Assembly: GCA_951406725.2 (NCBI GenBank)
Contig: CATOCA020000001.1
Coordinates: forward strand, 4,960,001-5,024,000
Origin: Octopus vulgaris
Lineage: Eukaryota
Direction of reading: 5' to 3'
Length of the DNA stretch: 64,000 nt
Shown: positions 7,969 through 44,800 of the stretch, piece after piece
Layout of the letters: each line of letters begins with the position of its first letter
How positions within the stretch are numbered: the first letter of the stretch is position 1
Made by a program: the position numbers and the translations under genes
The notes under the pieces: generated by a model
The model's database searches: none
What the model was told of the DNA's origin: nothing
The model's input: only the letters and a program-made list of their open reading frames with translations

Positions 7969-12822
<4,854 letters not shown>

Positions 12823-12859
12823 TATTATTATTTTTATTATTATTATTATAATTATTATT

Positions 12860-13198
12860 GTTATTGGAAATTTCTTCCGGCTAAACATTTCACTCACTTC
12901 TTCACAGTAAAATTATATCATTTAATGCAATCATTAATGTGATATTCCCTCCAGTTTCATATTAAAGAAAAGCTTAGGCAGGGTTATGTATATATTACAT
13001 CACACACAGAGACACAAACACACACACACACACGAACAATCGTACACATCAACTCTCCTCCTCTTCTTTCCCCTCTCTCTCTTCTATCACTCCCTCTACC
13101 CGTCTCTCATTTTAACTCTTCCACTTCCACCGCCAATCATCATAAACTGCTGACTGAAATTTTCAAATCGAAATTATATAATTAGAAATACAGATAAC

Positions 13199-14048: not shown

Positions 14049-14667
14049 TTACGTATATATATATATATTTTACATATATGTATATATCTATGTATATCTG
14101 AGCGCGTGTATGTATATGTGTATGTGTTTCAGTTTATCCACTATGACCGCTTGGGAACAGGTTCCGGTTTTTTACGTCCCAGTAATTTGGCCGATCGGTA
14201 TCTTGTTAAATTCCTTACAACCACTTGAAACTTTTCACATTTTTACCACATCATTTTCAAAGCATTTACGTCTGATTCAGAATTGCCTGCCGCTGACGAT
14301 AATTGCCTTCATGTTTTTCTTTTTTCTGGTAAATAATAATAAAAAATCAAAAGTATAAATTTGCGTAACTGTAGGCAAATCAGCGGAAGGGATCGCGAGA
14401 ATACGCAGCAGGCTTAACAACAAATACTGGGGTCGATTTGTGCGACTAAAACACTTTAAGGCAGTGCCCCAGCATAGTCGCAGCCCAATGGATGACAAAC
14501 GTAAGGAATTGTTTACAGCTGTGGTTTAAATTCTACGCCATAAATTAGAATTGTCGGATCTCATCGAAGACAGCGAACGGGAATTGAAGCTCTATGGTTT
14601 GTGTTCCTGAAATTTTAAAGGATGCAACAATAGAAAATGATCTATCTATCGATCAATCAATCGATCT

Positions 14668-14735
<68 letters not shown>

Positions 14736-14764
14736 CCTATATATCTACATATCTATCTATCTAT

Positions 14765-15565
14765 CTGGAACGAGATAACGAGTAGGGTGGTCACTCTCGC
14801 CCAGCAATGGGCCGAGAGGAAAGTGTCCCTAAAAGGTCGGGCGGAGGTGGCGAACGCCTACATCGCGTCCATCATCTACAACCGCCTGACCGTCATACCT
14901 TGTCCCGACCCTACCATCACCAAACTAGAACGCATCCTCTTCCGCTTCTTGTGGAAAGGATGCGTCCTGTTGGTCAGGCGATCCATTTGCTGTCAACACC
15001 CGTTAAAAGAAGGGCTGGGCATGCCGTGGTTGATGATGCGCAGACACGCGCTGAGACTGCGACATCTCCGGCTCTATGTAGACGACGGTGAACAGGTGTG
15101 GTCACCGTTTGTGAGGCACGCATTCCCGCAACTCGTCTCCATGACCGAACAACAGTCGTGGATCAAAAAGAAGCCGAGTACGGGCGAATGGCACCGCGAG
15201 TGTCGCGTTGCTCTCAAGCAACTCTGCCTTCTCGGGTCGACCTTGAGTGACTTCAACACAACCAAAGAATTCTATAGGGGATTAGTGGAGGGGAGGTACG
15301 ACGACGATCTCGTGGCAAACCTGGGCGTCGACGAGGAATACCTGACCCACCTGTTTCAAACGACTTTCGGCCCGGGACCTATGGACAACTTCCAGAGCTC
15401 CCTGGCCTGGCGGTGCTACAGAGAAGCGCTACCCGTTCGGGATAAGCTCTATAGGCATGGCTCGAGAAACACGGGGCCGACCTGCCCGAGATGCGGGCAG
15501 AGCGACGAAACCGCTCTGCACGCAATCGTGCAGTGTCCAGCAATTTCCGACCTGTGGGCTTATTT
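14765..15565 (+). mobile_element. L1/Tx1-clade LINE ORF2 fragment (post-RT region + zinc knuckle)
   Basis: W..RKVSLKGRAEVAN...LFRFLWKG...GLGMP...AWRCYREALPVRDKL...CPRCGQSDETALHAIVQC. Confidence 0.85.
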
Positions 15566-15844
15566 ATCCTTCGTCCTGAATTCTCGCCCCTCCATCCTTA
15601 TCTCTATTTGCTCTTATTACCAGGTTCGTTCACGTTTGTCTGTATTTATATATGTATATATTTATTTATTCATTTATTTATATGACCTCAACATCCAAAC
15701 TTCCTCATTCTACATTGAGAGAAGGACGAGATGGACGCTTCATTTTTATGCTGTTGCCGCATTATGTCGTACGCGAATGAGAGGATTTGCATCCTCAACG
15801 TAGAATTTTTGATGTAATACATGTCCTTGAGGTAGTAATTGTGC

Positions 15845-17658: not shown

Positions 17659-17779
17659 TTAGGATGAGGAATGTTCGTAACAGCTAACACGGACTGTGTC
17701 ATCATAATACTGTCCACGAAGCGGTGATAGGAGCAAAGCTTATCCAATAGAAGTCGGTGGGCCTGCAAATCGGCAGATG

Positions 17780-18740
17780 GAGAGGCAGACCCATACCTAC
17801 CGACAGGTTTTAGGGTCCTTAATGGAAAGACAGGTTAAACTGCTTGGGGTCTGGTCTGCTGTAGACCTCGAGGTGGACAACAACGGGTGGGAGGTGACGA
17901 ACAGGATAGTCGATCTCACCCAGAAATTGGCAGAGAGGAAGCTGTTCGTGAAGGGTCGAGTCGAGAGTCCTAATGCGTACATCGCTTCCGTCATCTATGA
18001 CTGCCTGAATTTAGTCCCATGCCCGATAAAGTTAGAGCGTTTGTTATTCCGCTTTCTAAAGAAGGGACGTGTTCCGCTCATCAGACGTTCTATCTGCTGT
18101 CAACAACCTCTCAGTGGAGTACTGTACATGTCGTTGCTAATGATTCGCAGACATGCGCTGAGACATCTCCTGCGTTTCTTTATGGGTTAGCATTGGGGAT
18201 TGACTGTTTGTCAAACGGGACTTTCCGCAGCTCGTCTCACTGAAGAAGCTACAGTACTGAGTGAAGCGTTGGCCAAGAAAGGGCGCTTGGCACCTGGAGT
18301 GTCGGCAAGCTCTCACAGCTTTCTGCCAGTCGGGCAATGCCGGCGTTGAAAGTTCCACCATGGATTTCTATAGGGGATTAGTAGAGGGGTAAGAACAAGG
18401 ACGAAATCGGGGTAAATTCTGGGCGTAGGTGGAGGGAATCAACTAACTGGTCTTTAACTTCCAGAAATCCCTGGTTTGGAAGTGCTACCGGGGAGCTCTG
18501 CCGATTCAAGACAAGCTCTACAGATACGAAAGTGTTGACGGACGGATATGTCAGGGATGTGCGCAGGGCGATCAAATAGTCCTGCATGCACTCATCCGTC
18601 CAGTTTACGAGCCGAGTTCATTGTAAAGATCGCCCCGCCACCTTTTTTCTGGCCGGGAAGGAAAAGCAGTTTCTCCTGCCCGGTGGCTAAAGAAGTAGAG
18701 TGGTGGACGAGACTGAAATCATTGAAGACTAAACCTTCTT
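17780..18740 (+). mobile_element. Degenerate L1/Tx1-clade LINE fragment, same family as 14765-15565
   Basis: VKLLGVW...ERKLFVKGRVE..NAYIASVIY...LERLLFRFL. Confidence 0.8.
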
Positions 18741-21668: not shown

Positions 21669-21880
21669 ATAAATCTACGCCTGGCAATATGTTTCACCAC
21701 GTAGTATCATATAGACGGTCTCTTGTGTTGATACTGTGTACGATATTGTTTTTTTGGAGACTCAAGCTGATTCAGATATATGCAACACATGTAATTGCAA
21801 TTCACTTACAGCGGAATAAATTGTGCACGTCGCAATTTACTATCAATTCCACAACCAATTCCGACGAATGTTGAATATTT
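21669..21880 (+). CDS. Exon: signal peptide + LRRNT cap (ATG at 21689)
   Basis: Poly-T/acag acceptor ends at 21668; gtaagt donor at 21881. Reads MFHHVVSYRRSLVLILCTILFF/ETQADSDICNTCNCNSLTA/INCARRNLLSIPQPIPTNVEYL, matching the LRRNT pattern CxC...C...L..IP..IP. Needs two +1 corrections (T7 run near 21750, near 21815). Confidence 0.8.
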
Positions 21881-24800: not shown

Positions 24801-27800
24801 TCTGATAAATGAATACCAACGTTCGTTCACAGATAAAGAGAAAGATTATTTATGCAGCTCTGTAATGAAAGAGAGTAATTTCTATGGATCACCCAAGATC
24901 TGCGAATGCTCCAAAATGCAAGGATCAGCATATAAAAATACTAAGACCTACTGACATCAAATTGAGACCAACAGTTGCTGACCTTGAGCCCCAACACAAC
25001 AACTGAGCCATCTTTTGGATATACTCCTCAAACCGTTGTGCCCATTAATGGCCAGCTATACCCGAGACGATAAGGATTTCCTCAAACACATTCCACCCAC
25101 TGTCCCAGAACGTACTATACTTAAAAGATTTGACTAATCTTTGTACTAATACATCACACTTTGGGCCTGGAAGCAATCAAACACTGGGTAGAAAAACATA
25201 GCGGACGGATGGACGAACGCTTCAAAACGCATTTCCAAAGACACACGCCGGGAACTAGAAGACAACACCTTTAGATTCGATAATAAACTATATCGACATA
25301 TAAAAGGACACCACTGCGGGGACGAGGTTCACACACATACACGCACCCAGAGGTAGATATACATATGTGTGTATATTTCTGAGTGTATATGTGTGTATGT
25401 GCGTATATATGCATACATGTGCGTGTATGTGTGTGTTGGTACATAGAGAGGCGAAGCGGATACTCGAGGTTGTGCAAGTCAAGTAAGAAATAAACATGAA
25501 ACTGCTGCCACATTAAGACATTCTTCTCCTCCGTCTTCTTCTTCTTCTTCTTCTTCTTCTTCTTCTTCTTCTTCTTCTTCTTCTTCTCTTCTTCTTCTTC
25601 TTCTTCTTCTTCCTCCTCTTGGTCTCCTCTTGTTCTTTATCTTCTTCTGTTTCTTCTTCCTCCTCTTCTTCTTCTTCTGCTTCTTCCTCTTCTTGTTCTT
25701 TATCTTCTTCTTCTTCTTCTTCTTCTTCTTCTTCTTCTTCTTCTTCTTCTTCTTCTTCTTCTTCTTCTTCTTCTTCTGTCTTTCAATCCTTTTTCGGTTT
25801 TCATCTTGAACACCTTCATTTTCCATGTCTACTTTTTCTTGTTCTTGTTCTTCTTCTTCGTTATCTTTCTTCTTTTTCTTCCTTTCATTCTCAAGTCACA
25901 GTGTTTGATGTTGTATCACAAATATTTTCCAAATAATCTATTTTACTCTTTCTTTACTGCTATAGAGATCTGCGAGGAACAACATTGCAACCATCAAAGA
26001 AGGAGCATTCACGGGGCTTTCAAATTTAAACATTGTAAGTTCGTTCAGTTTCTTGATACTATTTTCCGAAAGTAATAATTGATGCTGATATATAAGCTCA
26101 CAATTGTATAATATTTCAGACTGAACTAAACAAAATTAATTCAAATTTGTAGAATGAACACGATTTAGGAATATACAAAGAGAATATGAGAGAGCGAGAC
26201 AATGTGAAATAAAGAGAGAGAATTTGAGAGAGAAATTGAAATAATAGGAAAAATATAATGTTCCTTTATTGTAGTTGCTTTGTTTCAATTCGCATCTCAA
26301 TAACTCATTTTTGTTCCCCAAATTTCAATGATTTTGATATGAATTTGTATTAGAAATGGTAACGTTTGTGAGTTTACATGTTTGCATCAAATATTTTTAG
26401 CTGAAGTATATGTGTATGTTCATATATAAGTGTAGTTCTGTGTGAAATGTGACTATATTATTCCTTTATTTTATATTTTACATCCTCCTCCATTTCTTAT
26501 TTCAATATTCTCCTTCGTGTTTCGATATTATCATTCAATTCGAATTTTGTCATTCACTTCACGTTATTTATGTAATAGAGCAACTGAAGTGGAAGCGGAA
26601 AATATATATTCGAATAATATAGTCACATACATTCTTTCTGTAAACCTGAAATACTTACTGTACTTGTAAGCTGGAATATTTGGCCTGATACAATTAAACT
26701 GCTGATATATTTCTTGTAAGCGTGTGTTTTCTAATATTCTTGTGACAATGAAGCGATATGAAATAAATAATCTCTCTCACCATATTTCCACAAGGGTGAG
26801 TGGGAATATGTGTGATGTGAGTGTGCATACCGCATTCCGTCGTTGATACTATGAATATAAGAATGCGTATGAGTGCATTTGAATATGTTGATTTCTGATT
26901 CCGTATATTCCCTGATTTTTCAGCCATGTCTTCTCGCCCAAAATTTTTCATTCTATCCTTGAATTATTTCCTGATATTTCGAAAATATTTTCAGTTTCAT
27001 CTTAAACACCATGATTTTCAATGTGTCTTCTTCTTCTTCTTCTTCTTCTTCTTCTTCTTCTTCTTCTTCTTCTTCTTCTTCTTCTTCTTCTCTTCTTCTT
27101 CTTCTTCTTCTTCTTCTTCTTCTTCTTCTTCTTCTTCTTCTTCTCCTTCTTCTTCTTTTTGTTCTTTTTCTTATTCTACTTCTCCTTCTCTGCCTTTTTC
27201 ATCATCTTTTTGTCATTTCGTCTTCCGCCTCCTCCTCCTTCTTCTTCTTCTTCTTCTTCTTCTTCTTCTTCTCTTCTTCCACTTCTAATTCATCTACTTC
27301 ATCTTCTTCTTCTTCTTTTCTTTTCTTTTTCTTCTATTTCACCTCCTCCTCCTCCTGGTCCTCCTCCTCCTCCTGGTCCTCCTGGTCCTCCTCCTCCTCC
27401 CGGACCTCCTCCTCCTTCCACTTCTAATTTTTTTCTTATTATTATTCTTCATTTTCTTCTTTAAATTCTCTTCCCCCTCCACTCCGCCCCTCCTCCTCCT
27501 ATTTCTTCTTGTAATTCTCCTCCTCCCCTCCTCTGCTGCTCCTTTTTCTTTTTTCTTCTTTTCTTCTTCGTCTTCTTCTTCTTCTTCTTCTTCGTCTTCT
27601 TCTTCTTCCTCTTCTTCTTCTTCTACTTTCAACTTCTTCATCTACCCTTCCTCCTCCTCCTCCTTCTTCTTATTCTTATTCTTATTCTTTTCTTCTACAC
27701 CTACTTTTTCCCTATCATCCTCTTCCTCCTCCTTTTTCCTCTTCCTTCTTCTACTTCTTTTTTTCATCTTCTTTTTTCTACCCAATCCTCTCCGCCCCTC

Positions 27801-30800
27801 CTCCTCCTCTTTCTTCTTCTAATTCTCTTCCTCCCTTCCACTCCTGCTCCTTTTCTTCTTCTTCTGCTTCTTCTTCTAATTCTTCTTCTTCTTTTCCTCC
27901 TCCTCCTTCTTTTTGTTTTCTTCTTCTCATTCTTCTATTTCTTTTTTTTCTTCTTATATTCTTCTTCTTCTTTCTACTTCTTTATCTACTTCTCCTCCTA
28001 CCCCTCTTTCTTCTTCTTATATTCTTTTTTTTGTTATTCTCCTCCTCCTCCTCCTCCTCCTTCATCTTCTTCTTCTTTTTCATCTTCTCCTACTTATTCT
28101 CCCCTTCTTACTCCTACTCCTCCTCCTTTTTCCTCCTCTTCCTTCTTCTTCTTCTTCTTCTCTACATCTTCTCCTCCTCCTCCTTCTCCTTCTTAACTTC
28201 TGTTTTTGTTATTCTCTTTCTCTCATCTCCTCCTTCTCCTCCTTCTTCTTCTTCATCTTCTTCTTCTTTTTCCTGCTTCAACTTCTTCTACGTCTTCTTC
28301 TTCTTGTTCTTCCCTTCCTTCTTCTTGCAATTCTTCTTCTTCCTCCTCCTCCTCCTCCTTCCTCCTTCTTCTTCGTCTTCTCCTTCTTCTTCCTCTTCTC
28401 CTTTCTTCTTTCTACTTCTTCATCTACTTCTCCTCCTCCTCTTCCTCGTCTTTCTTCTTCTTATCTTCTTCTTGTTATTCTCTTCCTCCTCCTTCTTTTA
28501 CTTTTTCTCCTGCATCTTCTTCCCTTTTATCAGCCTCCTCCTCCTTTTTCCTCCTATTCCTTCTTGCTCTTCTTTTTCTTCTACCTCTTCTCCTTTCTTC
28601 TTCTTATTCTTCTTCGCCTCCTCCTCTTCCTTCTTCTTCTTCCTTTTCTTCGTTATCTTTCTTCTTTTTCTTCCTTTCATTCTCAAGTCACAGTGTTTGA
28701 TGTTGTATCACAAATATTTTCCATATAATCTATTTTACTCTTTCTTTACTGCTATAGATATCTTGAAGGGAACAACATTGCAACCATCACAGAAGGAGCA
28801 TTCACGGGGCTTTCAAATTTAAACGGATTGTAAGTTCGTTCAGTTTCTTGATACTATTTTCCGAAAGTAATAATTGATGCTGATATATAAGCTCACAAAT
28901 GTATAAAATTTCAGACTGAACCAAACAAAATCAATTCAAATTTGTAGAATGAACAAGATTTAGGAAGATACAAAGAGAATATGAGAGAGCGAGACAATGT
29001 GAAAGAAAGAGAGAGAATTTGAGAGAGAAAGTGAAATAATAGGAAAAATATAATGTTCCTTTATTGTAGTTGCTTTGTTTCAATTTGCATCTCAATAACT
29101 CATTTTTGTTCCACAAATTTCAATGATTTTGATATGAATTTGTATTAGAAATGGTAACGTTTGTGAGTTTACATGTTTGCATCAAATATTTTTAGCTGAA
29201 GTATATGTGTATGTTCATATATAAGTGTAGTTCTGTGTGAAATGTGACTATATTATTCCTTTACTTTATATTTTGCATCCTCCTCCATTTCTTATTTCAA
29301 TATTCTCCTTCGTGTTTCGATATTAACATTCAACTTCGAATTTTGTCATTCACTTCACGTTATTTATGTAATAGAGCAACTGAAGTGGAAGCGGAAAATA
29401 TATATTCGAATAATATAGTCACATACATTCTATCTGTAAACCTGAAATACTTACTGTACTTGTAAGCTGGAATATTTGGCCTGATACAATTAAACTGCTG
29501 ATATATTTCTTGTAAGCGTGTGTTTTCTAATATTCTTGTGACAATGAAGCGATATGAAATAAATAATCTCTCTCACCATATGTCCACAAGGGTGAGTGGG
29601 AATATGTGTGATGTGAGTGTGCATACCGCATTCCGTCGTTGATACTATGAATATAAGAATGTGTATGAGTGCATTTGAATATGTTGATTTCTGATTCCGT
29701 ATATTCCCTGATTTTTCTGCCATGTCTTCTCGCCCAAAATTTATCGATCTATCCTTGAATTATTTCCTGATATTTCGAAAATATTTTCAGTTTCATCTTC
29801 AACACCATGATTTTCAATGTGTTTTTCTTCTTCTTCTTCTTCTTCTTCTTCTTCTTCTTCTTCTTCTTCTTCTTCTCCTTCTTCTTCTTCTTCTTCTTCC
29901 TCATCTTCTACTTCTTCTTTTTCTTATCCTACTTCTCCTTCTCTGCCTTTTTCATCATCTTTTTGTCATTTCGTCTTCTGCCTCCTCCTCCTTCTTCTTC
30001 TTCTTCTTCTTCTTCTTTTCTTTCTTCTTCCACTTCTACTTCATCTACTTTCTTCTTCTTCTTCTCTTCTTTTCTTTTTCTTCTATTTCTCCTCCTCCTC
30101 CTCCTCCTGGTCCTCCTCCTCCTCCTGGTCCTCCTCCTCCTTCCTCTTCTAATTTTTTTCTTATTATTATTCTTCATTTTCTTCTTTAAATTCTCTTCCC
30201 CCTCTACTCTGCCCCTCCTCCTCCTATTTCTTCTTGTAATTCTCTTCCTCCCCCTCCTCTCCTGCTCCTTTTTCTTCTTCTTCTTTTTCTTCTTCTTCTT
30301 CTTCTTCTTCTTCTTCTTCTTCGTCTTCTTCTTCTTCTTCTTCTTCTTCTTCTTCTACTTTCAACTTCTTCATCTACCCTTCCTCCTCCTCCTCCTTCTT
30401 CTTATTCTTATTCTTATTCTTTTTCTTCTACACCTACTTTTTCCCTATCATCCTCTTCCTCCTCCTTTTTCCTCTTCCTTCTACTTCTTTTTTCATCTTC
30501 TTTTTTCTACCCAATCCTCTCCGCCCCTCCTCCTTCTTTTTCTTTTCTTCTTCTCATTCTTCTATTTCTTTTTTTTCTTCTTATATTCTTCTTCTTCTTT
30601 CTTCTTCTTTATCTACTTCTCCTCCTTCTTCTTCTTATATTCTTCTTTTGTTATTCTCAACCTCCTCCTCCTCCTCCTTCATCTTCTTCTTCTTTTCATC
30701 TTCTCCTACTTATTCTCCCCTTCATACTCCTACTCCTCCTCCTTTTCCTCCTCTTCCTTCTTCTTCTTCTTCTTCTTCATCTTCTCCTCCTCCTCCTTCT

Positions 30801-33800
30801 CCTTCTTAACTTCTGTTTTTGTTATTCTCTTTCTCCTCCTCCTCCTCCTCCTCCTTCTTCTTCTTCATCTTCTTCTTCTTTTTCCTGCTTCAACTTCTTC
30901 TACGTCTTCTTCTTGTTCTTCCCTTCCTTCTTCTTGCAATTCTTCTTCTTCCCCTCCCCCTCCTCATCCTCCTTCTTTTTCGTCTTCTTCTTCTTCTTCT
31001 CCTTCTTCTTCTCCTTCTTCTTCTTCTTCTCCTTTCTTCTTTCTACTTCTTCATCTACTTCTCCTCCTCCTCTTCCTCGTCTTTCTTATTCTTATCTTCT
31101 TCTTCTTGTTATTCTCTTCCTCCTCCTCCTCCCCTCCTTCTCCTTCTTTTACTTTTTCTCCTACATCTTCTTCCCTTTTATCAGCCTCCTCCTCCTTTTT
31201 CCTCCTATTCCTTCTTGCTCTTCTTTTTCTTCTACCTCTTCTCCTTTCTTCTTCTAATTCTTCTTCGCCTCCTCCTCTTCCTTCTTCTTCTTCCTCTTCT
31301 TCTTCGTTATCTTTCTTCTTTTTCTTCCTTTCATTCTCAAGTTACAGTGTTTGATGTTGTATCACAAATATTTTCCATATAATCTATTTTACTCTTTCTT
31401 TACTGCTATAGAGGTCTGCGAGAGAACAACATTGCAACCATCAAAGAAGGAGCATTCACGGGGCTTTCAAATTTAAACGTATTGTAAGTTCGTTCAGTTT
31501 CTTGATACTATTTTCCGAAAGTAATAATTGATGCTGATATATAAGCTCACAAATGTATAAAATTTCAGACTGAACCAAACAAAATTAATTCAAATTTGTA
31601 GAATGAACACGATTTAGGAATATACAAAGAGAATATGAGAGAGCGAGACAATGTGAAAGAAAGAGAGAGAATTTGAGAGAGAAAGTGAAATAATGGGAAA
31701 AATATAATGTTCCTTTATTGTAGTTGCTTTGTTTCAATTCGCATCTCAATAACTCATTTTTGTTCCCCAAATTTCAATGATTTTGATATGAATTTGTATT
31801 AGAAATGGTAACGTTTGTGAGTTTACATGTTTGCATCAAATATTTTTAGCTGAAGTATATGTGTATGTTCATATATAAGTGTAGTTCTGTGTGAAATGTG
31901 ACTATATTATTCCTTTATTTTATATTTTGCATCCTCCTCCATTTCTTATTTCAATATTCTCCTTCGTGTTTCGATATTATCATTCAACTTCGAATTTTGT
32001 CATTCACTTCACGTTATTTATGTAATAGAGCAACTGAAGTGGAAGCGGAAAATATATATTCGAATAATATAGTCACATACATTCTATCTGTAAACCTGAA
32101 ATACTTACTGTACTTGTAAGCTGGAATATTTGGCCTGATACAATTAAACTGCTGATATATTTCTTGTAAGCGTGTGTTTTCTAATATTCTTGTGACAATG
32201 AAGCGATATGAAATAAATAATCTCTCTCACCATATTTCCACAAGGGTGAGTGGGAATATGTGTGATGTGAGTGTGCATACCGCATTCCGTCGTTGATACT
32301 ATGAATATAAGAATGTGTATGAGTGCATTTGAATATGTTGATTTCTGATTCCGTATATTCCCTGATTTTTCAGCCATGTCTTTTCGCCCAAAATTTTTCA
32401 TTCTATCCTTGAATTATTTCCTGATATTTCGAAATTATTTTCAGTTTCATCTTAAACACCATGATTTTCAATGTGTCTTCTTCTTCGTCTTCTTCTTCTT
32501 CTTCTTCTTCTTCTTCTTCTTCTTCTTCTTCTTCTTCTTCTTCTTCTTCTTCTTCTTCTTCTTCTTTTTGTTCTTTTTCTTATTCTACTTCTCCTTCTCT
32601 GCCTTTTTCATCATCTTTTTGTCATTTCGTCTTCTGCCTCCTCCTCCTCCTTCTTCTTCTTCTTCTTCTTCTTCTTTTTCTTCTTCCACTTCTACTTCAT
32701 CTACTTCTTCTTCTTCTTCTTCTCTTCTTTTCTTTTTCTTCTATTTCACCTCCTTCTCCTCCTCCTCCTGGTCCTCCTCCTCCTCCTGGTTCTCCTCCTC
32801 CTCCTGGTCCTCCTCCTCCTGGTCCTCCTCCTCCTGGTCCTCCTCCTCCTTCCTCTTCTAATATTTTTCTTATTATTATTCTTCATTTTCTTCTTTAAAT
32901 TCTCTTCCCCCTCCACTCCGCCCCTCCTCCTCCTATTTCTTCTTGTAATTCTCTTCCTCCCCTCCTCTCCTGCTCCTTTTTCTTTTTTCTTCTTTTTCTT
33001 CTCCGTCTTCTTCTTCTTCTTCGTCTTCTTCTTCTTCATCTACCCTTCATCTTCTTCTTCTTCTTCTTCTTCTACTTTCAACTTCTTCATCTACCCTTCC
33101 TCCTCCTCCTCCTTCTTCTTATTCTTATTCTTATTCTTTTTCTTCTACACCTACTTTTTCCCTATCATCCTCTTCCTCCTCCTTTTTCCTCTTCCTTCTT
33201 CTACTTCTTTTTTTCATCTTCTTTTTTCTACCCAATCCTCTCCGCCCCTCCTCCTCCTCTTTTTCTTCTAATTCTCTTCCTCCCTTCCATTCCTGCTTCT
33301 TCTTCTTCTTCTAATTCTTCTTCTTTTCCTCCTCCTCCTTCTTTTTCTTTTCTTCTTCTCATTCTTCTATTTCTTTTTTTCTTCTTATATTCTTCTTCTT
33401 CTTTCTACTTCTTTATCTACTTCTCCTCCTACCCCTCTTTCTTCTTCTTATATTCTTCTTTTTGTTATTCTCATCCTCCTCCTCCTCCTCCTCCTTCATC
33501 TTCTTCTTCTTTTTCATCTTCTCCTACTTATTCTCCCCCTTCATTCCCTACTCCTCCTCCTTTTTCCTCCACTTCCTTCTTCTTCTTCTTCTACATCTTC
33601 TCCTCCTCCTCCTTCTCCTTCTTAACTTCTGTTTTTGTTATTCTCTTTCTCCTTCTCCTCCTCCTCCTCCTCCTCTTCTTCTTCTTCATCTTCTTCTTCA
33701 TTTTCCTGCTTCAAATTCTTCTACGTCTTCTTCTTGTTCTGCCCTTCCTTCTTCTTGCAATTCTTCTTGTTCTTCCTCCCCCTCCTCATCCTCCTTCTTT

Positions 33801-35854
33801 TTCGTCTTCTTCTTCTTCTTCTTCTACTTCTTCTTCTTCTTCTCCTCTTTTTCTCCTTCTGCCTTATTCTTATCTTCTTCTTCTTGTTATTCTCTTCCTC
33901 CTCCTCCTCCTCCTCCTTCTTCTTCTTCTTCTTTTCACCTTCCGCCTCCTCCTCCTTTTTCCTCCTATTCCTTCTTGCTCTTCTTTTTCTTCTTCTTCTT
34001 CTTCTCCTTTCTTTCTTCTAATTCTTCTTCGCCTCCTCCTCTTCCTTCTTCTTATTCTTCCTTTTCTTCTTCGTTATCTTTCTTCTTTTTCTTCCTTTCA
34101 TTCTCAAGTCACAGTGTTTGATGTTGTATCACAAATATTTTCCATATAATCTACATTATTCTTTCTTTACTGCTATAGAAATCTGCAACGGAACAACATT
34201 GCAACCATCACAGAAGGTGTATTCACGGGGCTTTCAAATTTAAAAGACTTGTAAGTTCGTTCAGTTTCTTGATACTATTTTCCGAAAGTAATAATTGATG
34301 CTGATATATAAGCTCACAAATGTATAAAATTTCAGACTGAATCAAACAAAATCAATTCAAATTTGTAGAATGAACAAGATTTAGGAAGATACAAAGAGAA
34401 TATGAGAGAGCGAGACAATGTGAAAGAAAGAGAGAGAATTTGAGAGAGAAAGTGAAATAATAGGAAAAATATAATGTTCCTTTATTGTAGTTGCTTTGTT
34501 TCAATTCGCATCTCAATAACTCATTTTTTGTTCCCCAAATTTCAATGATTTTGATATGAATTTGTATTAGAAATGGTAACGTTTGTGAGTTTACATGTTT
34601 GCATCAAATATTTTTAGCTGAAGTATATGTGTATGTTCATATATAAGTGTAGTTCTGTGTGAAATGTGACTATATCATTCCTTTATTTTATATTTTACAT
34701 CCTCCTCCATTTCTTATTTCAATATTCTCCTTCGTGTTTCGATATTATCATTCAACTTCGAATTTTGTCATTCACTTCACGTTATTTATGTAATAGAGCA
34801 ACTGAAGTGGAAGCGGAAAATATATATTCGAATAATATAGTCACATACATTCTATCTGTAAACCTGAAATACTTACTGTACTTGTAAGCTGGAATATTTG
34901 GCCTGATACAATTAAACTGCTGATATATTTCTTGTAAGCGTGTGTTTTCTAATATTCTTGTGACAATGAAGCGATATGAAATAAATAATCTCTCTCACCA
35001 TATTTCCACAAGGGTGAGTGGGAATATGTGTGATGTGAGTGTGCATACCGCATTCCGTCGTTGATACTATGAATATAAGAATGCGTATGAGTGCATTTGA
35101 ATATGTTGATTTCTGATTCCGTATATTCCCTGATTTTTCAGCCATGTCTTTTCGCCCAAAATTTTTCATTCTATCCTTGAATTATTTCCTGATATTTCGA
35201 AAATATTTTCAGTTTCATCTTAAACACCATGATTTTCAATGTGTCTTCTTCTTTCTTCTTCTTCTTCTTCTTCTTCTTCTTCTTCTTCTTCTTCTTCTTC
35301 TTCTTCTCTTCTTCTTTTTGTTCTTTTTCTTATTCTACTTCCTCCTTCTCTGCCTTTTTCATCATCTTTTTGTCATTTCGTCTTCTGCCTCCTCCTCCTT
35401 CTTCTTCTTCTTCTTCTTCTTCTTCTTCTTCTTCTTTTCTTTCTTCCACTTCTACTTCATCTTCTTCTTCTTCTTCTTCTTTTCTTCTTCTTCTTTTCTT
35501 CTTCTTCTGCTCCTCCTCCTCCTGGTCCTCCTCCTCCTCCTGGCCTCCTCCTCCTCCTGGTCCTCCTCCTCCTCCTGGTCCTCCTCCTCATCCTGGTCCT
35601 CCTCCTCCTCCTGGTCCTCCTCCTCTCCTGGTTCTCCTCCTCCTGGTCCTCCTCCTCCTCCTGGTCCTCCTCCTCCTTCCTCTTCTAATATTTTTCTTAT
35701 TATTATTCTTCATTTTCTTCTTTAAATTCTCTTCCCCCTCCACTCCGCCCCTCCTCCTCCTATTTCTTCTTGTAATTCTCTTCCTCCCCCTCCTCTCCTG
35801 CTCCTTTTTCTTTTTTCTTCTTTTTCTTCTCCGTCTTCTTCTTCTTCTTCTTCG

Positions 35855-35889
<35 letters not shown>

Positions 35890-38800
35890 TTCTTCTTCTA
35901 CTTTCAACTTCTTCATCTACCCTTCCTCCTCCTTTCTTCTTATTCTTATTCTTATTCTTTTTCTTCTACACCTACTTTTTCCCTATCATCCTCTTCCTCC
36001 TCCTTTTTCCTCTTCCTTCTTCTACTTCTTTTTTTCATCTTCTTTTTTCTACCCAATCCTCTCCGCCCCTCCTCCTCCTCATTTTTCTTCTTCTAATTCT
36101 CCTCCTCCCTTCCATTCCTGCTCCTTTTCTTCTTCTTCTGCTTCTTCTTCTAATTCTTCTTCTTCTTCCTCCTCCTCCTTCTTTTTCTTTTCTTCTTCTC
36201 ATTCTTCTATTTCTTTTTTTTCTTCTTATATTCTTCTTCTTCTTTCTACTTCTTTATCTACTTCTCCTCCTACCCCTCTTTCTTCTTCTTATATTCTTCT
36301 TTTTGTTATTCTCATCCTCCTCCTCCTCCTCCTTCATCTTCTTCTTTTTCATCTTCTCCTACTTATTCTCCCCCTTCCTCCTCCTCCTCCTCCTTTTTCC
36401 TCCACTTCTTCTTCTTCTTCTTCTTCTTTACATCTTCTCCTCCTCCTCCTTCTCCTTCTTACTTATTCTTTTGTTATTCTCTTTCTCCTTCTCCTCCTCC
36501 TCCTCCTCCTTCTTCTTCTTCATCTTCTTCTTCTTTTTCCTGCTTCAAATTCTTCTACCGTCTTCTTCTTGTTCTTCCTTCCTTCTTCTTGCAATTCTTC
36601 TTCTTCCCCTCCCCCTCCTTCATCCTCCTTCTTTTTCGTCTTCTTCTTCTTCTTCTTCTTCTCCTTCTTCTTCTCCTTCTTCTTCTCCTTCTTCTTCTTC
36701 TCCTTTCTTCTTTCTACTTCTTCATCTACTTCTCCTCCTCCTCTTCCTCGTCTTTCTTATTCTTATCTTCTTCTTCTTGTTATTCTCTTCCTCCTCCTCC
36801 TCCCCCTCCTTCTTCTTCTTCTTTTTCTCCTACATCTTCTTCCCGTTTATCAGCCTCTCCTCTTTTTCCTCCTATTCCTTCTTGCTCTTCTTTTTTCTTC
36901 TACCTCTTCTCCTTTCTTCTTCTAAATCTTCTTCGCCTCTTCCTCTTCCTTCTTCTTCTTCTTTTCTTCTTCGTTATCTTTCTTCTTTTTCTTCCTTTCA
37001 TTCTCAAGTCACAGTGTTTGATGTTGTATCACAAATATTTTCCATATAATCTATTTTACTCTTTCTTTACTGCTATAGAGATCTGCAATGGAACAACATT
37101 TGCAACCATCAAAAGAAGGTACATTCACGGGGCTTTCAAATTTAAAAGAATTGTAAGTTCGTTCAGTTTCTTGATACTATTTTCCGAAAGTAATAATTGA
37201 TGCTGATATATAAGCTCACAAATGTATAAAATTTCAGACTGAACCAAACAAAATCAATTCGAATTTGTAGAATGAACAAGATTTAGGAAGATACAAAGAG
37301 AATATGAGAGAGCGAGACAATGTGAAAAAAAGAGAGAGAATTTGAGAGAGAAAGTGAAATAATAGGAAAAATATAATGTTCCTTTATTGTAGTTGCTTTG
37401 TTTCAATTCGCATCTCAATAACTCATTTTTGTTCCCCAAATTTCAATGATTTTGATATGAATTTGTATTAGAAATGGTAACGTTTGTGAGTTTACATGTT
37501 TGCATCAAATATTTTTAGCTGAAGTATATGTGTATGTTCATATATAAGTGTAGTTCTGTGTGAAATGTGACTATATCATTCCTTTATTTTATATTTTACA
37601 TCCTCCTCCATTTCTTATTTCAATATTCTCCTTCGTGTTTCGATATTATCATTCAACTTCGAATTTTGTCATTCACTTCACGTTATTTATGTAATAGAGC
37701 AACTGAAGTGGAAGCGGAAAATATATATTCGAATAATATAGTCACATACATTCTATCTGTAAACCTGAAATACTTACTGTACTTGTAAGCTGGAATATTT
37801 GGCCTGATACAATTAAACTGCTGATATATTTCTTGTAAGCGTGTGTTTTCTAATATTCTTGTGACAATGAAGCGATATGAAATAAATAATCTCTCTCACC
37901 ATATTTCCACAAGGGTGAGTGGGAATATGTGTGATGTGAGTGTGCATACCGCATTCCGTCGTTGATACTATGAATATAAGAATGCGTATGAGTGCATTTG
38001 AATATGTTGATTTCTGATTCCGTATATTCCCTGATTTTTCAGCCATGTCTTCTCGCCCAAAATTTATCGTTCTATCCTTGAATTATTTCCTGATATTCTG
38101 AGAACATTTTCAGTTTCGTCTTTAACAACATGATTTTCAATGTATCTTCTTCTTCTTCTTCTTCTTCTTCTTCTTCTTCTTCTTCTTCTTCTTCTTCTTC
38201 TTCTTCTTCTTCTTCTTCTTCTTCTTCTTCTTCCTCCTTCTCTTCTTCTTCTTCTTCTTCTTCTTCTTCTTCTCTTTGTTTTCACTTCTTCTTCTTTTCT
38301 TCTTCCTCTCCTCCTGCTCCTTCTCCTCCTTCGTTTTCTTCTCTTCTTTTTCTTCTTTTCCTTCTTCTTCTTCTCTTCTTTTCTTTTCTTCTACTTCTAC
38401 TCCTCCTCTCCTTCCTCTTCTAATTTCTTTCTTCTTCTTATTCTTCATTTTCTTCTTTAATTCTCCCCCCTCCACTCCGCCCCTCCTCCTCATTTTCTTC
38501 TTGTAATTCTCCTCTCCCCTCCTTCTGCTCGTTTTTCTTCTTCTTCTTCTTCTTCTTCTTCTTCTTCTTCGTCTTCTTCTTCTTCTTCTTCACTTCATTC
38601 CTCCTTTTTCCTCCTATTCCTTCTTGCTCTTCTTTTTCTTCTACCTCTTCTCCTTTCTTCTTCTTCTAATTCTTCTTCGCCTCCTCCTCTTCCTTCTTCT
38701 TCTTCCTTTTTCTTCTTCTTCTTTTCTTCCTTTCATTCTCAAGTCACAGTGTTTGATGTTGTATCACAAATATTTTCCATATAATCTATTTTACTCTTTC

Positions 38801-41800
38801 TTTACTGCTATAGAGATCTTGGATGGAACAACATTGCAACCATCAAAGAAGGAGCATTCACGGGGCTTTCAAATTTAAAGGGATTGTAAGTTCGTTCAGT
38901 TTCTTGATACTATTTTCCGAAAGTAATAATTGATGCTGATATATAAGCTCACAAATGTATAATATTTCAGACTGAACTAAACAAAATTAATTCAAATTTG
39001 TAGAATGAACACGATTTAGGAATATACAAAGAGAATATGAGAGAGCGAGACAATGTGAAAGAAAGAGAGAGAATTTGAGAGAGAAAGTGAAATAATGGGA
39101 AAAATATAATGTTCCTTTATTGTAGTTGCTTTGTTTCTATTCGCATCTCAATAACTCATTTTTGTTCCACAAATTTCAATGATTTTGATATGAATTTGTA
39201 TTAGAAATGGTAACCTTTGTGAGTTTACATGTTTGCATCAAATATTTTTAGCTGAAGTATATGTGTATGTTCATATATAAGTGTAGTTCTGTGTGAAACG
39301 TGAATATATTATTCTTTTATTTTATATTTTGCATCTTCCTCCATTTCTTATTTCAATATTCTCCTTCGTGTTTCGATATTATCACACAATTTCGAATTTT
39401 ATCATTCACTTCACGTTATTTATGTAATAGAGCAACTGAAGTGGAAGCGGAAAATATATATTCGAATAATATAGTCACATACATTCTATCTGTAAACCTG
39501 AAATACTTACTGTACTTGTAAGCTGGAATATTTGGCCTGATACAATTAAACTGCTGATATATTTCTTGTAAGCGTGTGTTTTCTAATATTCTTGTGACAA
39601 TGAAGCGATATGAAATAAATAATCTCTCTCACCATATTTCCCCAAGGGTGAGTGGGAATATGTGTGATGTGAGTGTGCATACCGCATTCCGTCGTTGATA
39701 CTATGAATATAAGAATGCGTATGAGTGCATTTGAATATGTTGATTTCTGATTCCGTATATTCCCTGATTTTTCAGCCATGTCTTCTCGCCCAAAATTTTC
39801 ATTCTATCCTTGAATTATTTCCTGATATTTGAAAATATTTTCAGTTTCATCTTAAACACCATGATTTTCAATGTGTCTTCTTCTTCTTCTTCTTCTTCTT
39901 CTTCTTCTTCTTCTTCTTCTTCTTCTTCTTCTTCTTCTTCTTCTTCTTCTCCTTCTTCTGTGTATTGTTCTTTTTCTTATTCTACTTCTCCTTCTCTGCT
40001 TTTTTCATCATCTTTTTGTCTTTTCGTCTTCCGCCTCCTCCTCCTCTTCTTCTTCTTCTTCTTCTTCTTCTTCTTCTTCTTCTTCTTCCACTTCTACTCC
40101 ATCTACTTCTTCTTCTTCTTCTTCTTCTACTTTTCTTCTTCTTCTATTTCACCTCCTTCTCCTCTCCTCCTGGTCCTCCTCCTCCTGGTCCTCTCCTCCT
40201 CCCTTCTGGTCCTCCTCCTCCTGGTCCTCCTCCTCCTCTTCCTCCTCTTCCTGGTCCTCCTCCTCCTCCTCCTGGTCCTCTTCCTCCTCCTGGTCCTCCT
40301 CCTTCCTCTTCTAATTTTTTTCTTATTATTATTCTTCATTATATTTTTTAAATTCTCTTCCCCATCCACTCCGCCCTTCCTCCTCCTATTTCTTCTTGTA
40401 ATTCTCTTCCTCCCCCTCCTCTCCTGCTCCTTTTTCTTTTTCTTCTTTTTCTTCTTCCGTCTTCTTCTTCTTATTCTTCTTCTTCGTCTTCTTCTTCTTC
40501 TTCTTCTCCTTCTTCTTCTTCTTCTTCTTCTTCTTCTTCTTCTTCTACTTTCAACTTCTTCATCTACCCTTCCTCCTCCTCCTTCTTCTTCTTCTTATTC
40601 TTATTCTTTTTCTTCTACACCTACTTTTTCCCTATCATCATCTTCCTCCTCCTTTTTCCTCTTCCTTCTTCTACTTCTTTTTTTCATCTTCTTTTTTTCT
40701 ACCCAATCCTCTCCGCCCCTCCTCCTCATTTTCTTCTTGTAATTCTCCTCCTCCCTTCCTTTCCTGCTCCTTTTCTTCTTCTTCTGCTTCTTCTTCTAAT
40801 TCTTCTTCTTCTTTTCCTCCTCCTCCTTTTCTTTTCTTCTTCTCATTCTTCTATTTCTTTTTTTTCTTCTTATATTCTTCTTCTTCTTTCTACTTCTTTA
40901 TCTACTTCTCCTCCTACCCCTCTTCTTCTTCTTATATTCTTCTTTTTGTTATTCTCATCCTCCTCCTCCTCATCTTCTTCTTTTTCATCTTCTCCTACTT
41001 ATTCTCCCCCTTCATACTCCTACACCTCCTCCTCTTTTTCCTCCACTTCCTTCTTCTTCTTCTTCTTCTACTTCTTCTCCTCCTCCTCCTTCTCCTTCTT
41101 AACTTCTGTTTTTGTTATTCTCTTTCTCCTTCTCCTCCTCCTCCTCCTCCTCCTTCTTCTTCTTCATCTTCTTCTTTTTTCCTGCTTCAAATTCTTCTAC
41201 GTCTTCTTCTTCTTGTTCTTCCCTTCCTTCTTCTAGCAATTCTTCTTCTTCCCCTCCCCCTCCCTATCCTCCTTCTTTTTCTTCTTCTTCTTCTCCTTCT
41301 TCTTCTCCTTCTTCTTCTTCTCCTTCTTCTTTCTACTTCTCCTCCTCCTCTTCCTCGTCTTTCTTATTCTTATCTTCTTCTTCTTGTTATTCTCTTCCTC
41401 CTCCTCCTCCACCCTCCTTCTCCTTCTTTTACTTTTTCTCCTACATCTTCTTCCCTTTTTTCAGCCTCCTCCTCCTTTTTCCTCCTATTCCTTTCTTGCT
41501 CTTCTTTTTCTTCTACCTCTTCTCCTTTCTTCTTCTTCTTCTTCTTCTTCTTCTCCTCCTCCTCTTCCTTCTCCTTCTTCTTCTTCTTCTTCTTCTTCTT
41601 CTTCTTTTCTTCCTTTCATTCTGAAGTCACAGCGTTTGATGTCGTAACACATATTTTCCATATAATCTAATTTACTCTTTCTTTACTGCTATAGAGCTCT
41701 GAACGAGAACAACATAGCAACCATCAAAGAAGGAGCATTCACGGGGCTTTCAAATTTAAAGGGATTGTAAGTTCGTTCAGTTTCTTGATACTATTTTCCG

Positions 41801-44800
41801 AAAGTAATAATTGATGCTGATATATAAGCTCACAAATGTATAAAATTTCAGACTGAACCAAACAAAATCAATTCGAATTTGTAGAATGAACAAGATTTAG
41901 GAAGATACAAAGAGAATATGAGAGAGCGAGACAATGTGAAAGAAAGAGAGAGAATTTGAGAGAGAAAGTGAAATAATAGGAAAAATATAATGTTCCTTTA
42001 TTGTAGTTGCTTTGTTTCAATTCGCATCTCAATAACTCATTTTTGTTCCCCAAATTTCAATGATTTTGATATGAATTTGTATTAGAAATGGTAACGTTTG
42101 TGAGTTTACATGTTTGCATCAAATATTTTTAGCTGAAGTATATGTGTATGTTCATATATAAGTGTAGTTCTGTGTGAAATGTGACTATATTATTCCTTTA
42201 TTTTATATTTTGCATCCTCCTCCATTTCTTATTTCAATATTCTCCTTCGTGTTTCGATATTATCATTCAACTTCGAATTTTGTCATTCACTTCACGTTAT
42301 TTATGTAATAGAGCAACTGAAGTGGAAGCGGAAAATATATATTCGAATAATATAGTCACATACATTCTATCTGTAAACCTGAAATACTTACTGTACTTGT
42401 AAGCTGGGATATTTGGCCTGATACAATTAAACTGCTGATATATTTCTTGTAAGCGTGTGTTTTCTAATATTCTTGTGACAATGAAGCGATATGAAATAAA
42501 TAATCTCTCTCACCATATTTCCACAAGGGTGAGTGGGAATATGTGTGATGTGAGTGTGCATACCGCATTCCGTCGTTGATACAATGAATATAAGAATGCG
42601 AATGAGTGCATTTGAATATGATTTATATTCCCTGATTTTTTTCCGTTTCTCGCCCAAGAATATTCCATATTCTGATTTTTCAGCTTTTCATGTTTCTCGC
42701 CCACCATGCTGCAATTTATCGATCTATCTCTTCTTCTTATTCTTCTCTCCTTCTTCCGCCATTCCTCCTGCTTCCTCCTTCTTCATTTCTTCTTCCTCTT
42801 CTTCCTTCTTCTTCTTCTTCTTCCTCCACCATTCTTCCTCCTCCTCCTCGTCCTTCTTCTTCCTTCCGCCATTCCTCCATGCTCCTCCTCCTCGTCATTC
42901 TCTTTTCTTCTTCCTCCTTCTTCTTCTTCTTCTTCTTCTTCTTCTTCTTCTTCTTCTTCTTCTTCTTCTTCTCCTTCTTCCGCCATTCATCCTGCTCCTC
43001 CTCCTCGTCCTTCTTTTTCTTCTACTTCCTCTTCTTCTTCTTCTTCTTCTTCTTCTTCCTCCACCATTCCTCCTGCTCCTCCTCCTCGTCCTTCTTCTTC
43101 TTCTTCTTCTTCTTCTTCTTCCGCCATTCCTCATGCTCCTCCTCCTCGTCCTTCTTTTTCCTCTTCTTCTTTATCTCTTCCTCTTCTTCTTCTTCTTCTT
43201 CTTCTTCTTCCTCCACCATTCCTCCTGCTCCTCCTCCTCGTCCTTCTTCTTCTTCTTCTTCTTCTTCTTCTTCTTCTTCTTCTTCTTCTTCTTCTTCTTC
43301 TTCTTCTTCTTTCTTCTTCTTCTTCTTCTTCTTCTTCTTCTTCTTCTTCTGCTTCTTCTTTTCTTCTATCTTTCTTGTTCCCTCCTCCCCCTACCCCTCC
43401 TTCTTTTCTACTTCTAATCTTTTCTCTTCTCCTTCTCCGTCTTATTCTTCATTTTCTTATTGTAATTCTCTTCCCCTCCTCCTCCTTTTTCTTCTTGTAA
43501 TTCTCGCCCTACCCCTCCCCATCTCCCTCCTTTTTTCTTCTTCTTCTTCTTCATCTACTTTTTCTCCCTCTTCTTCTGCTCCTCCTCTTCTTCTTCTACT
43601 TCTCCTTGTCTACCTCCTTCTTTTTATTTTTCTACTCTACTCCTTCTTCTTCTTCTTCTCTTCCACCTCCTCCTCCTCCTCCTCCTCTTTCTTTTTCTTC
43701 TTCTCCTACTTCTTCTGCTCCTTCAACCTCCTCCCTCCTCCTCCTATCTACCTCCTCTTCTTTCTTCTTCTTATTCATCTTTTTCCTTCTTCTTCTTTCT
43801 CTTCCTCTACCTATTCTTCTTCCTCTTCTTCTTGTACTTCTCATTTCTCTTCTCCTTCTTTTTCTTCCTCTTCTTCTTCTCCTTCTACTTCTCCTCCCCA
43901 TCTTCCTCCTTCTTTATCTTATTCTTCTCTTTCATCTTTATTTTTCTTCTTCTTCTTCTTCTTCTTCTTCTACTTTGTACTTCTTCATCTACTTCTCTCT
44001 CCCTCCTCTTTCTTCTTCTTATCTTCTTTTTGTTATTCTCCTTCTCCTCCTCCACATCCTCCTTCTTCAACTTCTTTTACTTCTACTTCCCCTTCATACA
44101 CCTCCTTTCCTCTTCTCCTTTTGTCTCCTCTTCCTCCTTTTGTCTCCTCTTCCTCCTTTTGTCTCCTCTTCCTCCTTCTCCTTCTTCTTTTCTTCTTTTT
44201 CTTCGACGTCTTTTTCTTCCTATTCTTCTTCTTCTACAACTCCTACTTCTTCTTCTCTTCTTTCTTTTTCTTCTTCTTCTTCTTCTTCTTCTTCTCCTTC
44301 TATTCCTCTTTATTCTTCTTGTAATTCTTACTCTCCCACTCCCCCTCATCCTCATCCTTTTTCTTCTGCTTTTTCTTTACTTAATCTACTTTCTACTCTT
44401 CATCTACTTCTCCTCCTCCTCCTCCTCCTTCTTCTTCTTCTTCTTTCTTTTTATTCTCTTCCTTCTTCTCCTTTTCCACCTCCTTCTTCATTTCTTTCTT
44501 CTTTTTCATGCTTCTTCTTCTTCTTGTTTCTCTTCTACTCCTCCTTCTTCTTCTTCTTTTTCTTCCTCTTCTTCTTCTTCTTCTTTTTCTTCATCTTCTT
44601 CTTCATTTTCTTCTTCTCCTTCTTCTTCTTCTTCTTCTTCTTCTTCGTCTCTTCTTCTTCTTCTTCTTCTTCTACTTCTTCTTCTTCTCCTTCTTTTTCT
44701 CCTCCTCTACTTCCTCTTCTTGTTTCCTTCTTGTTCTTCTTCTTCTATTTCTTCTTCATCTTCTTCTTCTCCTTCTTCTTTTCTTCTTCTTCTTCTTCTT

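Follow-up and report, generated by a model that had tools for sequence, protein, structure and literature searches.

The question raised by this locus is how tandem copies of one exon can differ so markedly at a few codons when the introns that flank them are nearly identical. The locus lies in a 64,000-nucleotide (nt) stretch of the 2.8-Gb Octopus vulgaris genome (C31:4960001-5024000, the whole of which is called here the window). The window includes a single gene, on the + strand, with exons for a signal peptide and LRRNT cap, seven tandem leucine-rich repeats (LRRs), a terminal LRR and an LRRCT cap, followed by two cysteine-rich exons and two further exons (Table 1). We consider it likely that an old pool of variants of the concave LRR face has been kept by diversifying selection, and that gene conversion and duplication of units have homogenised the introns and reshuffled patches of the exons.

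The L4 codon of each repeated exon, or cassette, is split by the intron (positions are numbered along the motif LxxLxLxxNxI), and in every cassette exon nucleotides 2-4, 8-10, 11-13 and 68-70 are the codons x5, x7, x8 and x3, respectively. The residues that a preliminary description had listed for the seven units are all present in the sequence: D, Y, G, N, D, D and A at x5; R, E, R, Q, Q, G and N at x7; G, E, R, W, W and E at x8 and G, V, D, E, G and G at x3 of units 2 to 7, unit 1 being unassigned at both; and N in three units followed by K in four at x2. Units 1 and 5 are frameshifted as assembled; the register of unit 2 was applied to both, and codons with gaps were excluded. When the seven units were aligned, 9 of the 12 nucleotide sites in these four codons segregated, with a nucleotide diversity (pi) of 0.393 (92/234), as compared to 34 of 850 sites and a pi of 0.0146 in the downstream intron (Fisher p 1.6e-10), where the highest pi of any 12-nt window was 0.111. 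The proportion of differences at replacement sites (pN) of these hot codons was 0.508 and that at silent sites (pS) 0.076, and the pN of the other codons was 0.026. Divergence at the four codons thus exceeds that of the intron, as the preliminary description had expected, and its proposal of diversifying selection on the concave face is supported by the excess of pN over pS and by the cap exons discussed below; the uniformity of the introns likewise supports the homogenised background that it had envisaged.

Other statements of that description hold in part. Variation is concentrated on the concave face but is not confined to it, since positions 15 (K/T) and 18 (A/V/T) also vary; off the hot codons 6 of 57 exon sites segregate, with a pi of 0.040 (p 0.034 against the intron). 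Silent changes are few in number, as had been said, but high in rate, the exon pS of 0.10 being about 7 times the intron value. Near identity of the flanking introns is limited to the ~76 nt that precede and the ~1 kb that follow each cassette; the introns between cassettes measure 1.66-2.83 kb, and outside the conserved parts they consist of a length-variable C/T-rich tract. The intron of unit 7 diverges past about +860 nt. The range that had been given for the seven units leaves out the first of them (25966-26034).

The pattern extends to the family. Sixteen of the closest paralogs were fetched beside the window gene, and these 17 genes gave 114 BLAST hits to the cassette of the window, called type A, with 2 to 15 per gene. 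Extraction was possible for 106 of the 114 hits, of which 99 are 72 nt long and 98 are in frame, with AG/GT splice sites; the remaining eight include two half-exons and six hits with divergent splice motifs. A core set of 62 cassettes was defined by excluding 36 of the 106 for intron identity below 93% and 8 more for frame or length. Within this set x3, x5, x7 and x8 each have 9-11 residues and an entropy of 2.6-3.0 bits, as opposed to 1.1 bits or less elsewhere; positions 2, 10, 12, 15 and 18 form a second tier at 0.7-1.1 bits, and the others are near fixed. The hot codons have a pN of 0.59 and a pS of 0.25, and 55 distinct x3/x5/x7/x8 signatures occur among the 62 cassettes. The main figures were repeated with no intron-identity filter on the intact cassettes of 11 close genes (60/61 cassettes), in which hot-site pi was 0.50 versus 0.039 in the intron.

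An AlphaFold2 model of an O. sinensis paralog has a strand at x3-L4-x5 in every repeat, with predicted local distance difference test (pLDDT) values mostly above 85, and its best fold matches are the ectodomains of LRRTM2, LINGO-1 and NGL. By analogy with the LRR structures described in the accessible parts of two earlier accounts (PMC3900441, PMC11378527), these predicted strands would form the concave face. On the predicted structure the variable residues x3 and x5 lie on this strand, and x7 and x8 fall just after it. The same register is variable in the single-copy cap exons (LRRNT, terminal LRR and LRRCT, each compared in 13 paralogs): their 12 register codons have a pN of 0.310 and a pS of 0.068, and their 96 other codons a pN of 0.037 (permutation p 5e-5). 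The beta-strand residues of exon 1 differ across paralogs in the x3/x5/x7/x8 register, and a further strand of LRRCT is variable at alternate residues (pN 0.29, pS 0). Because this register is shared in unrelated DNA contexts, a mutator would need to choose codons by protein geometry, and selection on the protein is the simpler cause.

Each LRR is one 72-nt phase-2 exon within a tandem unit of about 2.7 kb, and units have been gained and lost among the genes. According to the reading that we prefer, unequal exchange would alter the number of cassettes, and short ectopic gene conversion would make the neutral intron uniform and distribute patches of the exon; that the C/T-rich tracts promote such exchange is a speculation. 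Selection for difference would act on four residues of the concave sheet per repeat and on the equivalent positions of the caps, and an older pool of variant codon blocks would be retained, with point changes adding to it and exchange mixing it inside exons and from one exon to another. The outcome would be a germline library of receptors with varied binding surfaces on one scaffold, to which exon skipping may add combinations. Since the intron splits L4, each strand draws x3 from one exon and x5, x7 and x8 from the next, and as a consequence the reordering or skipping of exons yields new strands.

Recombination takes place within the exon. All 15 pairs of biallelic exon sites show the four gametes, linkage, strong at distances up to 10 nt, has disappeared past 30 nt, sites only 16 nt apart can be in linkage equilibrium, and the 5' and 3' patches of the exon are unlinked. 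The hot-site distance is already 0.42-0.50 where introns differ by less than 1%, with a rho of 0.08 with intron distance; one pair of units has 8 of 12 possible hot-site differences and introns that differ at 2 of 850 sites. The upstream and downstream flanks of a unit are coupled to each other (Mantel r 0.29, p 0.002), and the exon between them is coupled to neither (r -0.02 and 0.06); this test omitted 8 cassettes from three genes. Coupling of the flanks in the absence of coupling to the exon suggests that short patches were copied into units which had recently duplicated. A shoulder of divergence marks the first 200 nt of the intron, at 0.050 versus 0.025.

The uncoupling of the exon from flanks that are themselves coupled, and the linkage equilibrium at a spacing of 16 nt, would also suit a programmed micro-conversion directed at the exon, germline or somatic, in which truncated copies serve as donors and selection is secondary. 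Two half-exon cassettes exist, and most close paralogs lack a GPS exon, since only 6 GPS exons are close to the family for at least 17 close LRR genes and several models stop before the GAIN region; the many copies without GPS may be secreted forms, donors or assembly fragments. We nevertheless regard a programmed process as quite unlikely, because untargeted conversion with selection predicts much the same and the intron is likewise a fine mosaic. Neither is there a sign of an mRNA template: no fused 144-nt exons were found among the cassette hits of the fetched genes, and in 37 adjacent cassette pairs the two sides of the splice junction were unlinked (p 0.07-0.91), which speaks against mRNA-templated conversion.

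A second alternative is that the units do not exchange sequence and that, following a recent duplication, positive selection acted on newly arisen point mutations. It agrees with the large excess of pN over pS at the four codons and with the fact that single steps can link all hot codons, and it is adequate for the cap exons, whose pS (0.03-0.07) is near the divergence of their flanking introns (0.01-0.04). In the cassettes it predicts that silent and intron divergence are equal, and this is largely refuted, as the silent divergence of the cassette exon is 4 to 7 times that of the intron (0.10 versus 0.015 in the window; 0.155 at scaffold third positions versus 0.039 in the unfiltered set). 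Variants with a minor count of at least 12 occupy 4 of 18 third positions as opposed to 15 of 850 intron sites (p 4e-4). In two older paralogs, on the other hand, the divergence is alike in the intron (0.18 and 0.14) and at silent exon sites (0.22 and 0.14). Because of this agreement the exon variants appear to be as old as the older-paralog layer and, taken with the silent excess, the introns of the young subfamily would have been made uniform since. Selection on fresh mutations also leaves unexplained the four gametes at every pair of sites, the unit pair with almost identical introns, and the perfect coupling by which each of the 15 x7 codons is tied to one silent L6 codon (0/100,000 permutations). 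We therefore give it a very low probability. Recurrence of L6-x7-x8 blocks in 2-5 genes was found for 14 of 30 blocks. Most variants are old blocks that paralogs have in common and that have been reshuffled between them, and not new point mutations, a point missing from the preliminary description.

Targeted mutation, which the preliminary description had offered as the alternative to selection, is disfavoured. A germline mutator acting at the exon ends (deaminase-, diversity-generating retroelement (DGR)- or editing-like) could account for very sharp peaks with invariant bases alongside, and a toy simulation of a 30-fold regional mutator (2 seeds per setting, as in all our simulations) gave a hot-site pi of about 0.52 and a silent pi of 0.09-0.11. 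The same simulation gave a pi of 0.62-0.65 at the third base of x5, where 0.03 was seen. This base is T in 61 of 62 cassettes; 60 have A at the silent first position of the exon and 60 have AAC at N9, and the silent bases within the variable patch are fixed except for L6. Targeted mutators have a base-specific spectrum that hits silent and replacement sites alike. Such a spectrum, as would be left by AID/APOBEC or a DGR, was not observed, which counts against these candidates: all six substitution classes occur, there is no base bias among the single-step links between hot codons, and the silent bases of the patch and AAC are fixed. The shared register of cap exons of unrelated sequence, and the protein identity in O. 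sinensis of three cassettes of one older paralog, are further arguments that make a mutator extremely unlikely.

The frameshifts of the window copy raise the matter of the assembly. Evidence from reads comes from runs X15 and X5, runs X17 and X19 having no cover at the exon. The intron appears in run X15 as single deep contigs with 0-5 differences across 290-346 nt, and the exon splits into many contigs that differ at x2/x3. Run X5, which is taken to be RNA by guess only, includes two contigs that pass the exon donor site into the terminal-LRR exon sequence and one that joins the end of a cassette to the start of a cassette, although the paralogs cannot be told apart; these are spliced cassette junctions of the family, and exon skipping is not among them. 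Indels are about 5 times denser in the exon (13 in 5,040 nt) than private small indels in the intron (33 in 59,500 nt; p 3.5e-5), and nearly all adjoin bases where paralogs differ. The extra base at 37111 is missing from most of the X15 and X5 depth, and the frameshifts in the window copy are probably consensus errors. An artefact of assembly or polishing, by which paralogous reads would have made introns uniform and scrambled exons, finds support in this indel enrichment, which looks like consensus mixing, and probably accounts for the frameshifts; as an account of the pattern it is highly improbable, given the same contrast in independent runs, O. sinensis models variable at the same positions, introns with structured shared variants, and 98 of 106 extracted cassettes in frame.

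Several points weigh against conversion and selection as the explanation of these data. Linkage decays in the intron as well (mean z 2.2 at 11-30 nt, about 0 past 150 nt), which makes the contrast between flank and exon modest. Saturation at hot sites by itself lowers correlations, and the 12 most variable single intron sites average a pi of 0.43. The cassettes are non-independent, and the p values are therefore optimistic. A toy simulation with selection reproduced the peak, but its silent pi was 0.03-0.09 versus 0.131 observed, and its pi at the x5 third base 0.28-0.50 versus 0.03. The case for selection was made by pN/pS and entropy, and recombination would bias a formal site model. The variable positions of LRRNT had already been seen when the cap register was fixed from the model. 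In addition, the window copy carries indels in exon 1, cassettes 1 and 5 and the LRRCT exon ("five exons' worth") and no GPS or 7TM exon was found for it, and it may be a pseudogene or donor.

The protein models of O. sinensis vary at the same positions. For two of its loci, with 7 and 13 models, the models differ from one another in entire 24-residue units which, these being predictions open to multi-mapping, suggests that exons may be skipped. Of 25 x7-x8 pairs, 18 are common to O. sinensis, versus a chance rate of 0.48, and of 25 whole cassettes 5 are common, a weak protein-level comparison in which isoform models are non-independent. The older paralog L050-L051 (the C30:19.6 Mb gene) has a near-same cassette series in the O. 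sinensis model P0001; only two other whole cassettes are common to both species, and turnover is strongly unequal between subfamilies.

The gene is a member of an adhesion G-protein-coupled receptor (GPCR)-like family, and not of the VLR or NLR type with which the preliminary description had compared it. Pfam scans of annotation models found GPS (E 1e-10) and 7tm_2 (E 7e-34) in P0012, and in P0031 also, weakly, GAIN and HRM. Since close full-length paralogs run on into GPS and a secretin-class seven-transmembrane (7TM) region, the family is adhesion-GPCR-like. The accessible text of Ritschard et al. 2019 describes, as group 3, an Octopus-specific expansion of adhesion GPCRs with GPS and 7TM in tandem clusters, of which 5 of 22 have LRRs, with branch-level positive selection and no selected sites, and with expression in axial nerve cord, suckers, skin and gills (PMC6408891). 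Both are adhesion GPCRs with LRRs in octopus, and the cassette family probably corresponds to this group; exon cassettes, hypervariable residues and conversion are not described in the accessible portion of that study (PMC6408891).

Several known systems resemble this one. The ROCO LRR arrays of brown algae, in the part of the published account at hand, are alike in having a 72-bp phase-2 exon per LRR, tandem organization and exon shuffling; their LRR exons are alternatively spliced, as those of the octopus genes may be, and their selected concave sites 14, 16, 18 and 19 have the same 2-2-1 spacing as x3, x5, x7 and x8 (PMC11378527). They differ in that they belong to algal LRR-ROC-COR GTPases and not to a signal-peptide ectodomain of an animal adhesion-GPCR-type gene, and gene conversion and homogenised introns are not mentioned in that portion of the account (PMC11378527). 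No ROC-COR GTPase domain was found in Pfam scans of P0012, P0031 and P0007, and the resemblance is one of convergence, not homology. Primate opsin exon 5, the major histocompatibility complex (MHC) and plant R genes also keep divergence at selected codons within homogenised introns, and conversion in such systems creates new haplotypes and can use non-functional copies as templates, according to the accessible part of a description of them (PMC3924837). The octopus system differs from these in that an exon is repeated within the gene, more than 100 units exchange, each site has many alleles, and linkage is already lost at 20 nt. The variable lymphocyte receptors (VLRs) of lamprey and hagfish share the LRRNT, 24-residue LRRs, terminal LRR and LRRCT, the concave variability and the conversion-like shuffling, but in lymphocytes deaminases put them together, as a somatic process, from a germline gene that is itself incomplete, as far as the available text of the source goes (PMC3900441). 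In octopus the germline genes are complete, the cassettes lie inside the gene and are spliced, and the C-terminus is adhesion-GPCR-like. Identity with VLRs was rejected, as there is no incomplete germline gene with outside donor cassettes, and the cassettes have AG/GT sites and are spliced in X5. Mutually exclusive exons of the Dscam type were likewise rejected because of the cassette-to-cassette joint in X5 and of models that hold many cassettes serially.

Table 1. Features of the window (coordinates in nucleotides from its first base).
Feature	Coordinates	Strand	Remarks
Exon 1, signal peptide and LRRNT cap	21689..21880	+	192 nt
LRR cassette exon 1	25966..26034	+	69 nt as assembled; -1 at x8, -2 at x3
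LRR cassette exon 2	28758..28829	+	72 nt, phase 2
LRR cassette exon 3	31412..31483	+	72 nt
LRR cassette exon 4	34179..34250	+	72 nt
LRR cassette exon 5	37079..37152	+	74 nt; two +1 indels adjoining paralog-polymorphic bases
LRR cassette exon 6	38814..38885	+	72 nt
LRR cassette exon 7	41695..41766	+	72 nt
Conserved intron segment (~1 kb) after cassette 2	28830..29826	+	pi 0.0146 across first 850 nt
Equivalent conserved intron segments	26035-27026, 31484-32488, 34251-35254, 37153-38145, 38886-39876, ~41767-42620		
C/T-rich simple-sequence tract, remainder of intron	29827..31335	+	length-variable; one ahead of every cassette
Terminal single-copy LRR exon	47703..47774	+	72 nt; x7, x8, x3 differ across paralogs
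Last half-LRR and LRRCT cap exon	51850..52006	+	157 nt
Cys-rich domain exon A	56846..56931	+	
Cys-rich domain exon B	58910..59093	+	
Downstream ectodomain exon	60036..60118	+	matches P0010/P0012
Last exon found for window copy	61168..61220	+	
Assembly gap	62969..63068	.	between window copy and next tandem paralog

Exon 1 is 191 nt long in 13 of the 14 paralogs read, and the window copy differs by +2 and -1 indels; the LRRCT exon is 158 nt in most paralogs, the window copy having a -1 at the variable x7 codon. Models of the O. vulgaris annotation run the LRRCT exon 18 codons upstream (51796-51849), a segment that is intron by comparison of paralogs and is missing from several O. sinensis models. 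Cys-rich exon B was reached in the fetched stretches of two paralogs, with identities of 100% and 99.6%. The domain gave no Pfam family and no Atlas hit, its pLDDT in the predicted model is below 50, and its cysteine pattern may be Ly6/uPAR-like. The O. sinensis models P0001 and P0003 have three and two tandem copies, respectively, of the two-exon domain. No GPS or 7TM exon was found after the window copy (0/54 GPS matches), which ends near the assembly gap, and exon 1 of the next tandem paralog starts about 1.8 kb beyond the end of the window. Upstream of the gene, a tandem satellite in which short unique spacers separate long runs of AAT occupies 8100-12900, and open reading frame fragments that we take to resemble the reverse-transcriptase tails of non-LTR retrotransposons lie at 14634-15803 and 17708-18190.

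Other observations were made on the family. In several paralogs (L020-L059; C31, C30, C2 and C5), as in O. sinensis models, type A cassettes alternate with those of a second 72-nt type (type B; consensus around KISRIEKEMFQGL), in which the same x positions are variable; type B was looked for in the window gene and none was found. Half cassettes of L017 (C31:1.57 Mb gene, hit 7) and L031 (C31:3.03 Mb gene, hit 3) have the same cut about 28 nt into the exon, with the intron joined to it, and these junctions are possible breakpoints of deletion or exchange. An inverted pair of type A and type B lies just upstream of the C5 paralog (L052:1-1200), for which the fetched stretch yielded no exon 1. 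GPS exons at C31:1783559 and C31:2553586 were unmatched to any fetched gene. More distant subfamilies, with cap exons about 70-80% identical and many GPS exons, cluster at C29 13-21 Mb, C30 18-20 Mb, C2 152 Mb, C8, C9 and C10, and relatives in O. bimaculoides are at 58-63% identity. Family members are labeled in public annotation as slit-like, LRRC15-like, chaoptin and TLR5.

An earlier description of the cassette diversity was not found in the literature, in a search that mostly lacked coverage of subscription journals; it led only to Ritschard et al. 2019, and PMC13193013 and PMC11202624 had no bearing on the subject. The cassettes, the hypervariable sites and the pattern of conversion appear to be new, and the expansion of LRR adhesion GPCRs in octopus had already been published, in a study whose accessible text reports no selected sites (PMC6408891); the family has also been obscured by its annotation names. 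With 55 signatures among 62 cassettes, 2-15 cassettes per gene, at least 40 genomic loci that match each cap exon, and selection over the whole face, the family bears the marks of a diversified recognition receptor. To our knowledge no such receptor is known in cephalopods, and we know of no adhesion GPCR that acts as an arms-race receptor.

Diversification as strong as this suggests a partner that coevolves, for instance microbes or parasites, and recognition of a fast-changing ligand, most likely a microbial or parasite surface, seems a reasonably probable role; the family would then serve an immune-type recognition. A code of cell identity or adhesion is possible, at lower confidence, and the tissues in which duplicated adhesion GPCRs of octopus are reported to be expressed (nerve cord, suckers, skin and gills), as given in the accessible text of the source (PMC6408891), leave room for a code of wiring or identity. 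It is rather unlikely that these genes make up an anticipatory recognition system in which the concave faces of dozens of LRR adhesion GPCRs are rebuilt by exon-focused, possibly somatic, micro-conversion and by exon skipping, with 7TM copies that signal and 7TM-less copies that act as secreted binders or donors; it would be a third independent VLR-like LRR repertoire, wired to G proteins, for immunity or cell identity. The family provides a defined target for work on octopus immunity, self-recognition or neural wiring, and its more than 100 units are a system in which conversion can be weighed against selection at the scale of the codon.

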